A DNA stretch of 64,000 bases, taken from NCBI RefSeq assembly GCF_044324785.1, contig NZ_CP172127.1. One strand, given 5' to 3'. Shown piece after piece: positions 1,441 to 2,795 of this stretch (position 1 is its first letter; every line of letters starts with the position of its first letter). A program made the position numbers and the translations under genes. The DNA is from Escherichia coli. Lineage in GTDB: Bacteria > Pseudomonadota > Gammaproteobacteria > Enterobacterales > Enterobacteriaceae. The notes under the pieces are model-generated. The model was not told the origin of the DNA, searched no databases, and saw only the letters and a program-made list of their open reading frames with translations.

Positions 1441-2387
1441 CAATCTTTCCTGATACACATTATCACTGCACCAGCTATACAGAGACAAAATAATCTGCAC
1501 CAGCCCCTGTAAATCGGTTATCTGTGCCAGTGTCCCGCCGCTCTACCTGTTCAGGGTTGTGCCAGTTTCTGGCCCTTTGGTTTTCGGCCCTTTCCGGTCA
1601 GGCGCTGTTACCCTTATTGCCCCTTAACCTTTATGACCCTTTCCCTTTCTGACGCAACCAGTTTATTTTGAAATGCTCCATGACAGTCTGCACCAGACTG
1701 TATTTTCACCACAGGATAACGATCACAAAGTGCAAAAAAATAACATGAAGCACCGAAGATTGTTAATCTATATGTAGCAGGTAATGATGTCAAAAACTGT
1801 CGCAGCATTTTTTATAAAATTATGAGACATTCTGTGGGCATATAATATATGTCACAAGATGCAGGAAAACAAAGAGAGAGTTTTCAGATATAATCCTGCG
1901 TCAGAATTAATGTGATGCCCCGGTGAATTTACATTTTAAAATTTCCCTGTCCCGTAATATCGGTAAAAACGATTGAAACACCAGCTATTAATCGGGAACG
2001 TTTCGAGTGATTACAGGGTAATCACTATAATATCCCGGCAAACTATATTGGTTAAGCAGGAGAATCTGATCAGTTGATACTTATTCGTCATGCTGTAACG
2101 ATATTTTCACAATATAAACCCGTTCGCCCCCTGCGCCAGATCCGGTACAGAGGGTACGATAAATCGCTGTCGTTACGCAGTAACGTACTATTTTGCGACA
2201 TTCATGAATTCAGTCATTCCTCCCTCCAGCGGTAGCCGTACACCTGTTTCACCCAGCGACCGCGACCGTCGCCATGACCCAGATCCGTCGCCGTCAGCGC
2301 CAGTGACTCCTTTTCGCTGAATCCCTGCGCCAGTATCCAGGACTGTCGTATAACGGGGACGCCCGCCTTTGGTGCCAAATACCACTT

Positions 2388-2795
2388 TTAGCCGGGTTTC
2401 ACCGCGTTCAGCCACGTTTTCAGCGACTGTGAACTCTGTACCGCCTCCTGCGAACGCAGCCCCATCAGCCGCGCAATCTCCAGCGCTGCTGCCAGCCCTG
2501 CGTCCTGAGTACGGGCTTTCTCCATCACCTGCCTGCGTCCAGCCTGTCTCAGCACGGCCCGCAACGCTGCCATTTCGTTTTGCAACGTTCGTAAACCAAT
2601 ATCCAGCTCCAGCCGTTCCTCAATGTAGCATTCGATATGGCGAACCTTGATCTGCTCCACCCGCTGGATCTGGATATTCAGCGCCCGTAAATGTTCACTG
2701 AACCGTTTTGTAATATGGATACGGTCATTCACCGTTTTGAAGCTGCCGCCCGCTTTCTTCGCCAGCGCCTTCATTTCACTGCTTAATTTACTCAT
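2388..2795 (-). CDS. hypothetical protein; helical pattern loosely resembles a recombinase N-terminal domain; ends at TAA with ~57 further open codons in frame
   Basis: 135-aa ORF; continuation of the same frame past the stop read manually (…KWYLAPKAGVPV…). Confidence 0.35.
   Translation of the reverse strand: MSKLSSEMKALAKKAGGSFKTVNDRIHITKRFSEHLRALNIQIQRVEQIKVRHIECYIEERLELDIGLRTLQNEMAALRAVLRQAGRRQVMEKARTQDAGLAAALEIARLMGLRSQEAVQSSQSLKTWLNAVKPG

Follow-up and report, generated by a model that had tools for sequence, protein, structure and literature searches.

In the course of the analysis of a 64,000-nucleotide stretch of the Escherichia coli contig NZ_CP172127.1 (the window), we became interested in a minus-strand reading frame that appears to extend beyond its own end. 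This frame (2388..2795) encodes 135 residues and is closed by a TAA at 2388-2390, past which it stays open for another 57 codons, KWYLAPKAGVPVIRQSWILAQGFSEKESLALTATDLGHGDGRGRWVKQVYGYRWREE, up to a TGA at 2214-2216. Its ATG (2795-2793) is preceded by the sequence GAGGG at 2804-2800, which corresponds to a Shine-Dalgarno sequence. The arrangement, which raises the question of how a stop codon comes to be followed by an open frame, had been recognized in the first-pass annotation, whose account of a 135-aa ORF, a TAA and about 57 open codons in the same frame is accurate with exact coordinates. Judged only by its composition, the open stretch is not exceptional, as 10.6% of 100,000 mononucleotide shuffles of its 171 nucleotides (61% G+C) were likewise devoid of an in-frame stop. 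Its non-randomness is instead defined by homology, since 39 of the 57 codons, located at its end, match an intact protein of 294 residues. At 2333..2217, the start-codon frame encodes the authentic C-terminus of this protein, LAQGFSEKESLALTATDLGHGDGRGRWVKQVYGYRWREE (residues 256-294, 100% identity), followed by the ancestral stop. The initial 18 codons past the TAA are out-of-frame junk without homology in that frame.

The intact protein contains an N-terminal PF12834 domain and a PF12835 catalytic domain of the tyrosine-recombinase type that are both matched over their entire length (PF12834, 1-91/91; PF12835, 1-149/149 with 200.4 bits) and it is one of 1517 homologues identified at E ≤ 1e-5, most of the shorter entries being partial. 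Full-length homologues, typically of 290-294 residues and containing PF12834 and PF12835, were found in Escherichia, Salmonella, Citrobacter, Klebsiella, Enterobacter, Lonsdalea and Pantoea, and the annotation of the parent gene does not go beyond "integrase domain-containing protein" or "DNA-binding protein". Those that are 72-90% identical to the intact allele comprise 290-294 residues and are distributed over five genera (E. coli, Salmonella, Citrobacter, Klebsiella and Lonsdalea), with a tblastn coverage of 97-99%. With respect to the check proposed in the earlier annotation, homologues of 2214..2795 in these five genera span the stop; rather than ending at the same position, which would have made the downstream frame coincidental, they read past it. 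The presence of full-length homologues in other genera therefore identifies the short form as derived.

The window copy was aligned as DNA to the intact 885-bp allele of strain CFSAN064035, which encodes WP_000041051.1, and to three intermediate alleles. In this alignment, the window copy contains gaps of 99, 10 and 194 bp, leaving 582 of the 885 bp with 303 bp gone. The resulting features are compiled in Table 1.

Table 1. Features of the gene remnant and its upstream region, in window coordinates; residue numbers refer to the intact 294-aa protein.
Feature	Position	Strand	Evidence
Whole pseudogene, PF12834+PF12835 integrase-like (MpsA-type) remnant of 294-aa gene	2214..2795	-	N3 annotation and DNA alignment
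Start codon and intact N-terminal SAM-like domain, ancestral residues 1 to ~88	2534..2795	-	Pfam, homologue alignment
Junction of 99-bp in-frame deletion, 2533/2532	2526..2533	-	Alignment to intact allele
Ancestral residues ~123-162 in start-codon frame; GLRSQEA box with candidate catalytic Arg147	2408..2525	-	PF12835 17-64
Junction of 10-bp deletion, 2407/2406, first frameshift	2406..2407	-	Alignments
TAA closing the 135-aa ORF; out-of-frame, spans ancestral CTA-AAA (Leu172-Lys173)	2388..2390	-	Alignments
Ancestral residues 167-190, RGETRLKVVFGTKGGRPRYTTVLD, with candidate catalytic Lys179; other frame only	2335..2406	-	PF12835 65-91
Junction of 194-bp deletion, 2334/2333, second frameshift, frame 0 restored	2325..2334	-	Alignments
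Authentic C-terminal 39 codons (residues 256-294; candidate His275, Tyr287) and original TGA	2214..2333	-	Homology
EFASI RNA motif (Rfam RF02957), intact, ends 56 nt upstream of ATG	2851..2978	-	100.8 bits
Conserved G+C-rich hairpin / inverted repeat, GGCGTCACTTTG...CAAAGTGACGCC	3080..3121		Alignment and folds

The 99-bp deletion, which is located within the 135-aa ORF and had been overlooked in the earlier annotation, has led to the loss of residues ~90-122 while keeping the frame. Its junction resides in an exact 7-bp repeat (GCAGGTG), which in the intact allele extends to 13 bp with one mismatch. The 10-bp deletion has caused the loss of AGCCATTTCC and shifts the frame 18 nucleotides upstream of the TAA; in the alignment to the intact allele, no microhomology was found to flank it. 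With the 194-bp deletion, whose junction resides in the 9-bp direct repeat CTGGCGCAG, residues 191-255 including the sequence H241-x-x-R244 are lost and the frame is shifted again. The original frame returns after this deletion because the sum of both frameshifting gaps (10 + 194 = 204) equals 3 x 68. Between the two junctions, the peptide RGETRLKVVFGTKGGRPRYTTVLD (2406..2335) is 96% identical to the intact protein and encoded in a frame other than that of the start codon. Alleles that retain the 10 bp are open across the site of the TAA, reading ...ETRLKVVFGTKGGRPR..., with the authentic codons being ..CGG CTA AAA...

The gene was broken by three events. The 194-bp deletion, which was probably the earliest, occurred between the 9-bp direct repeats and removed the HxxR active-site box while shifting the frame. 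A deletion between the GCAGGTG repeats removed residues ~90-122 in frame, and the 10-bp deletion brought an out-of-frame TAA into frame, at which the 135-aa ORF now ends. The two frameshifts cancel and return the last 39 ancestral codons and their stop to the frame of the start codon, and a stop is followed by an open frame because the 10-bp and 194-bp frameshifts compensate each other. The repeat-flanked deletions may have originated from replication slippage or illegitimate recombination, whereas slippage is unsupported for the 10-bp deletion, since it is not flanked by microhomology. We are confident that 2214..2795 is the non-functional remnant of an integrase-like gene that was destroyed by three deletions with two cancelling frameshifts. 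The locus provides a clean case where two compensating frameshift deletions mimic an in-frame nonsense mutation.

The distribution of the deletions was investigated in 5426 complete E. coli genomes, 423 of which contain the locus. A 50-mer covering the 194-bp junction was found in 67 of these genomes and the equivalent 50-mer of the 10-bp junction in two, namely N3 and 19KM1831. The count for the 99-bp junction, with about 46 exact matches, is imprecise, and the 69 genomes obtained at a coverage of at least 80% are unreliable, as they exceed the 67 genomes with the 194-bp deletion; this number is inflated because the repeat allows split matches to be joined. Strain 1190 carries the 194-bp deletion only, 19KM1831 the 194- and 10-bp deletions, ETEC4077 the 194- and 99-bp deletions and the window and N3 all three. 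The 99-bp deletion is thus shared by the window and ETEC4077 and absent from 1190 and 19KM1831, and on the background of the 194-bp deletion all four combinations of the two smaller ones exist. The alleles therefore do not form a simple series, and either a small deletion has recurred or alleles have recombined. The 99-bp deletion is flanked by repeats and hence prone to recurrence, yet an upstream SNP co-segregates with it. The truncated alleles are 98.5-100% identical to one another and the exact 135-aa form, with all three deletions together, was seen only in N3 and the window. As a whole, the pattern illustrates a stepwise, partly recurrent and repeat-mediated decay of a gene on a domesticated genomic island.

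The consequences of the deletions are manifested in the domain structure of the remnant. Residues 1-90 of the 135-aa ORF match positions 1-90/91 of PF12834 with 139.6 bits, and the N-terminal domain is complete. PF12835, in contrast to its full coverage in the intact protein, is distributed over two frames, with positions 17-64 in the frame of the ATG, positions 65-91 in another (ORF 2188..2415) and positions 1-16 and 92-149 missing, so that no complete domain is encoded in a single frame. The locus is a pseudogene of the PF12834/PF12835 family rather than a member gene. Among nine full-length homologues, the residues R147 (GLRSQEA), K179 (GTKGGRPR), H241 and R244 (HSLR), H275 (LGHG) and Y287 (QVYG) are invariant, with a spacing that corresponds to the R-K-HxxR-H-Y pattern of tyrosine recombinases; their assignment as putative catalytic residues is by motif analogy and is weakly supported by matches of the intact protein to PF00589, XerC and PHROG 1. 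In the window copy, H241 and R244 are deleted and K179 is found out of frame past the stop, whereas R147, H275 and Y287 remain, and the catalytic set of a tyrosine recombinase is not contained in one polypeptide. With its conserved H-x-x-R motif lost to the 194-bp deletion, the gene is dead as an enzyme, and we infer that the protein function of the locus is no longer present. A truncated product of the 135-aa ORF may still be made, as the Shine-Dalgarno sequence, the ATG, the N-terminal domain and the upstream EFASI motif are all retained.

Whether such a product could be of use defines the alternative that fares best, although we consider it improbable. It assumes that the 135-aa ORF encodes a truncated yet functional protein whose stand-alone N-terminal DNA-binding domain would be employed in a similar manner as MpsB, the separate core-binding (CB)-like protein of SGI1. 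In its favour, a start codon, a ribosome binding site and a complete PF12834 domain are retained downstream of an intact EFASI, and there is precedent in stand-alone CB-like accessory proteins, with MpsB being essential for the transfer of SGI1 (PMC6414798). Conversely, residues 90-135 of the ORF represent what the deletions have left of the catalytic domain, with six junk residues at the end, the stop depends on the 10-bp deletion, which is present in 2/5426 genomes, with the exact form only found in N3 and the window, the near-identity of the truncated alleles (98.5-100%) provides no sign of selection, and the integrase of the island is frameshifted as well. The destruction of the gene by three deletions remains the preferred reading.

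We regard it as highly improbable that the stop has originated from a single point mutation of a sense codon to TAA in an otherwise continuous frame. This had been proposed in the first-pass annotation and would be in line with the 57 open codons that follow in the same frame, but the three bases of the TAA belong to two adjacent ancestral codons, CTA-AAA (Leu-Lys), the frame continues past this position in alleles that lack the 10-bp deletion, and 303 bp of the gene are missing. Moreover, the 18 codons past the TAA lack homology, whereas the other frame matches PF12835. A nonsense mutation was rejected as it is already refuted by the alignments to the intact allele and to homologues, with the TAA being a triplet of another frame that became a stop through the 10-bp deletion, while the second part of the proposal, the assignment of the locus as a pseudogene remnant, is correct. 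Programmed recoding, by either two ribosomal frameshifts or stop read-through, is barely credible, since the net restoration of the frame leaves a read-through product formally possible, but this product would be devoid of both deleted segments (residues 90-122 and 191-255) and with them of the invariant H241-x-x-R244, which makes catalysis implausible, neither a slippery sequence nor any recoding signal was observed and intact alleles have no need for it. A sequencing or assembly artefact, finally, is equally hard to conceive: although small indels are common errors, and one of 1 bp distinguishes the window from N3 at 3573, the 10-bp deletion is found in two independent complete genomes and the window, the 194-bp deletion in 67 genomes and the 99-bp deletion in dozens.

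The destroyed gene is not unique to the window, whose positions 2100-2900 are 100% identical to the chromosome of E. coli N3 (NZ_CP031609.1). In N3, the region 2875197..2875778 corresponds to 2214..2795 of the window and is annotated by PGAP/RefSeq as pseudogene AXA56_RS14120 ('phage integrase N-terminal domain-containing protein, frameshifted'), which shows no difference from the window copy and shares its coordinates and island. The feature is thus already annotated in RefSeq, and the gene family and the RNA motif upstream are both known; in itself, the finding of an ordinary, correctly annotated pseudogene matters little. Across the first 12 kb, a BLAST comparison of the window with N3 revealed, besides the mentioned indel, one SNP (11200). 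Past ~26.4 kb, the window contains a stretch that cannot be aligned to the corresponding region of N3 and instead matches prophage-type genes of other E. coli, including a replicative helicase, an integrase and RepO. The window thus represents a close relative of N3 rather than this strain.

The nature of the parent gene is of wider relevance. PF12835 is used as signature of MpsA, an atypical tyrosine-recombinase-like relaxase of Salmonella Genomic Island 1 (SGI1; PMC10484663; PMC6414798), which belongs to the MOB_M family of relaxases related to tyrosine recombinases (PMC6414798, PMC8152469, bioRxiv 10.64898/2026.01.13.699239). For a direct comparison, the mpsA-mpsB locus was recovered from a metagenome contig with the 27-nt primer sequence of Kiss et al. 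The recovered MpsA comprises 321 residues with Y319 as described in the paper and matches PF12835 with 42.7 bits (gathering score 23). In BLASTP, it shares 27% identity with the intact E. coli protein over 196 residues (E = 2e-5), in an alignment that extends over the helical region at the N-terminus and over both the GLRxxE and the GTKGGR(A/P)R box. A comparison of the family with MpsA by hhalign gave weak support, with a probability of 26% (E = 7e-4), because the profile is shallow (Neff 1.4). Both MpsA and the E. coli family thus score above the gathering threshold of PF12835 and are encoded on integrase-bearing islands, but the latter contains the N-terminal PF12834 domain and lacks a separate mpsB, and the relationship is distant. 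A BLASTP comparison of the 135-aa ORF with MpsB gave no alignment, and an assignment of the surviving ORF as an MpsB-like stand-alone domain was discarded as it has no support in sequence.

With respect to tyrosine recombinases in general, the intact protein resembles XerC/XerD, Cre and phage integrases in the R..K..HxxR..H..Y pattern and its typical spacing. It shows weak matches to PF00589 (E = 1.2e-4), TIGR02224 XerC (E = 9e-6) and the PHROG 1 integrase (E = 1e-11), and a search of PDB chains with its sequence found nothing at E ≤ 1. Unlike two-domain tyrosine recombinases, it does not reach the curated cut-offs of PF00589 and XerC, and it has no arm-binding domain. MOB_M relaxases were described in a 2026 preprint as the commonest relaxases in chromosomes, 96% of which adjoin an integrase and which are often annotated as integrases themselves (bioRxiv 10.64898/2026.01.13.699239). 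On the basis of its sequence, the parent gene may plausibly encode a relaxase, or possibly a second site-specific recombinase. A separate P4-type integrase already adjoins it on the island.

The only wider lead of our analysis concerns the link of this MpsA-like family to EFASI, an RNA motif described as 'Enterobacteriaceae, Frequently Around STAXI and Integrases' (Rfam text quoted in PMC12370729). In the window, the motif is matched over its entire length (model positions 1-133/133) with 100.8 bits against a gathering score of 51.2, and it complies with the description of the family by being located directly upstream of an 'integrase' gene, which here is a pseudogene. The same organization, with EFASI ending 54-64 nt upstream of the start codon of the PF12834/PF12835 gene, recurs in each of the seven related loci that were scanned (7/7), and EFASI is a conserved partner of this gene family. 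STAXI was detected neither at E ≤ 1 in the region 800-4900 nor at the gathering score across the whole window; its association with EFASI is frequent but not obligatory. Further upstream, 285-326 nt from the ATG, the hairpin listed in Table 1 shows conserved outer arms and an inner stem whose sequence varies while its pairing is retained in E. coli, Salmonella and Lonsdalea. We hypothesize that this hairpin could be a candidate for an oriT-like element.

The described arrangement is reminiscent of SGI1, where oriT is located 304-428 nt upstream of mpsA with the essential sgm-sRNA encoded between them (PMC6414798, PMC9299015). In both cases, the gene is preceded by structured non-coding DNA, oriT and sgm-sRNA in SGI1 and EFASI and the inverted repeat in the E. 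coli island, and this positional parallel is suggestive. An Rfam scan of the upstream region of an SGI1-type mpsA detected no EFASI even at E ≤ 10, and the parallel between EFASI and sgm-sRNA is an analogy only, because the EFASI model has no match in this region. We thus tentatively consider, while regarding it as rather doubtful, that the intact gene, EFASI and the inverted repeat could constitute a mobilization module of the MOB_M type, composed of an MpsA-like relaxase and its cognate sRNA and/or oriT. Should the parent proteins be relaxases, mobilisable elements would include many of the small islands of Enterobacteriaceae that carry Rhs toxins or defence systems, and a role could be assigned to EFASI. 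Such a module would serve widespread small enterobacterial islands that integrate at tRNAs and carry Rhs toxins or defence systems, it would assign a function to the orphan EFASI motif, and the window copy would be an immobilised relic, with relaxase-like gene and integrase both broken.

The island itself spans ~10 kb between yeeO/tRNA-Asn and yeeN. It contains, in this order, a frameshifted P4-type integrase, an A+T-rich repeat region, the pseudogene and an HTH_35 gene, followed by a 153-aa hypothetical gene and further by a PAAR-Rhs toxin and a TPR protein. The gene for WP_000041051.1 (294 aa, 'integrase domain-containing protein') resides at the same position and in the same island context in CFSAN064035 as the window copy, from which it differs by the 99 + 10 + 194 bp that the latter has lost, and the intact gene is part of the backbone of this small tRNA-Asn (yeeO/yeeN) island with an Rhs toxin. 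Compared to the intact gene of 19KM1831, the neighbouring P4-type integrase of the window contains a 1-bp deletion at ~22/23, and with its integrase frameshifted too, the island looks immobilised and generally decaying. In CFSAN064035, the integrase contains an internal stop.

The gene has a P4-type integrase as direct neighbour in the window as well as in L001-L003, L006, L007 and L009-L012, which are loci of E. coli and Salmonella; the integrase is located ~2 kb away in the Lonsdalea locus L014, and the flank fetched for L013 contained no integrase call. Loci with intact homologues in Salmonella and Lonsdalea share a similar backbone consisting of variable cargo, an HTH_35 gene, non-coding DNA, the PF12834/PF12835 gene and the P4-type integrase. 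In Salmonella, the integrase is found directly downstream, by the integration site, and in L014 on the opposite side. The non-coding stretch encompasses ~900 nt in the Salmonella loci and the 153-aa hypothetical gene precedes the HTH_35 gene in two of them (L009/L010), whereas the variable cargo of other loci includes, among others, PIN-TPR-GreABC/HetE-N, DarTG and Peptidase_U49.

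An HTH_35 gene, the EFASI RNA motif and a gene encoding a PF12835 protein constitute a common backbone that the tRNA-Asn island of the window shares with the Salmonella loci L009 and L010 and the Lonsdalea locus L013. A P4-type integrase belongs to this backbone as well in the loci from E. coli and Salmonella, and also in a second Lonsdalea locus (L014). The islands built on the HTH_35/EFASI/PF12835 backbone differ in cargo, and together they have the look of a family whose small members carry toxin and defence genes. The succession of EFASI motif and gene is kept in all seven related loci, irrespective of whether the gene is intact or decayed, and in the window the start codon (ATG) of the pseudogene, the remnant of a 294-aa MpsA-type integrase-like gene, is located 56 nt downstream of the motif.

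Features of the island, of a prophage-like region of the window and of related loci
Feature	Location	Strand	Remarks
P4-type integrase of the island	window 1-850	+	frameshift at ~22/23
Degenerate direct and inverted repeats	window 900-1420		common TTATCAATAGG-like core; A+T-rich surroundings 850-2100
EFASI RNA motif (RF02957)	window 2851-2978	-	full-length match, 100.8 bits
G+C-rich hairpin/inverted repeat	window 3080-3121		conserved (GGCGTCACTTTG...CAAAGTGACGCC)
C4 antisense RNA (RF01695)	window 4413-4598	-	62.2 bits
Window cargo	window 4881-9666		PAAR-Rhs toxin, TPR protein
Second isrK/C4 set	window 38244-38441	+	within prophage-like region
Salmonella cargo	L009/L010 354-4018		PIN-TPR-GreABC, HetE-N
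Lonsdalea cargo	L013 7124-12550		HATPase_c_3, Peptidase_U49, DarT/NADAR

About 300 nt upstream of the pseudogene we find a hairpin whose inner stem varies in sequence between E. coli, Salmonella and Lonsdalea with its pairing kept. Its placement relative to the pseudogene resembles that of oriT relative to mpsA, the gene for the atypical relaxase of Salmonella Genomic Island 1 (SGI1). The 52-aa 'hypothetical protein' annotated across this hairpin (3063..3221, +) is probably spurious.

Comparison with the intact gene of E. coli strain 19KM1831 reveals a 1-bp deletion in the P4-type integrase (GGATTTCACTG to GGATTT-ACTG), which is also present in strain N3, the best database match of the window. 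This frameshift and the neighboring pseudogene leave the island with two inactivated recombinase-type genes. In the background of the 194-bp deletion, the 10-bp and 99-bp deletions of the pseudogene are found in all four combinations (window 2400-2540 compared to the E. coli loci L003, L006 and L007); the four-gamete test thus fails, implying that either a deletion has recurred or pseudogene alleles have recombined. An upstream SNP in the RBS region (GCAGAGGG vs GCAGGGGG) co-segregates with the 99-bp deletion.

In E. coli, the A+T-rich repeats, which correspond to the 'iteron region' of the first-pass annotation, are placed between integrase and pseudogene; 131-nt copies at 1052-1182 and 1280-1410, for example, share 73% identity. 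In the Salmonella relatives, the integrase-to-gene gap of only 194 bp leaves no room for such a region.

The C4 RNA is accompanied by a1/b1-target and isrK-like matches slightly under their gathering scores. It closely precedes the 153-aa hypothetical gene and the SfsB/Ner-like HTH_35 gene, an arrangement that may be likened to an immunity module of the P1/P7 type carried by the island.

The window is not identical to N3. Downstream of the HTH_35 gene, an extra G at 3573 introduces a bulge into a 16-bp hairpin that would otherwise be perfect. The two sequences also differ by a SNP at 11200 and by many changes between 20 and 25 kb in the repeats of an Ig-like adhesin gene. The alignment ends just past a tRNA-Ser gene (26295-26381), and from about 26400 onwards prophage-type genes elsewhere match instead of N3.
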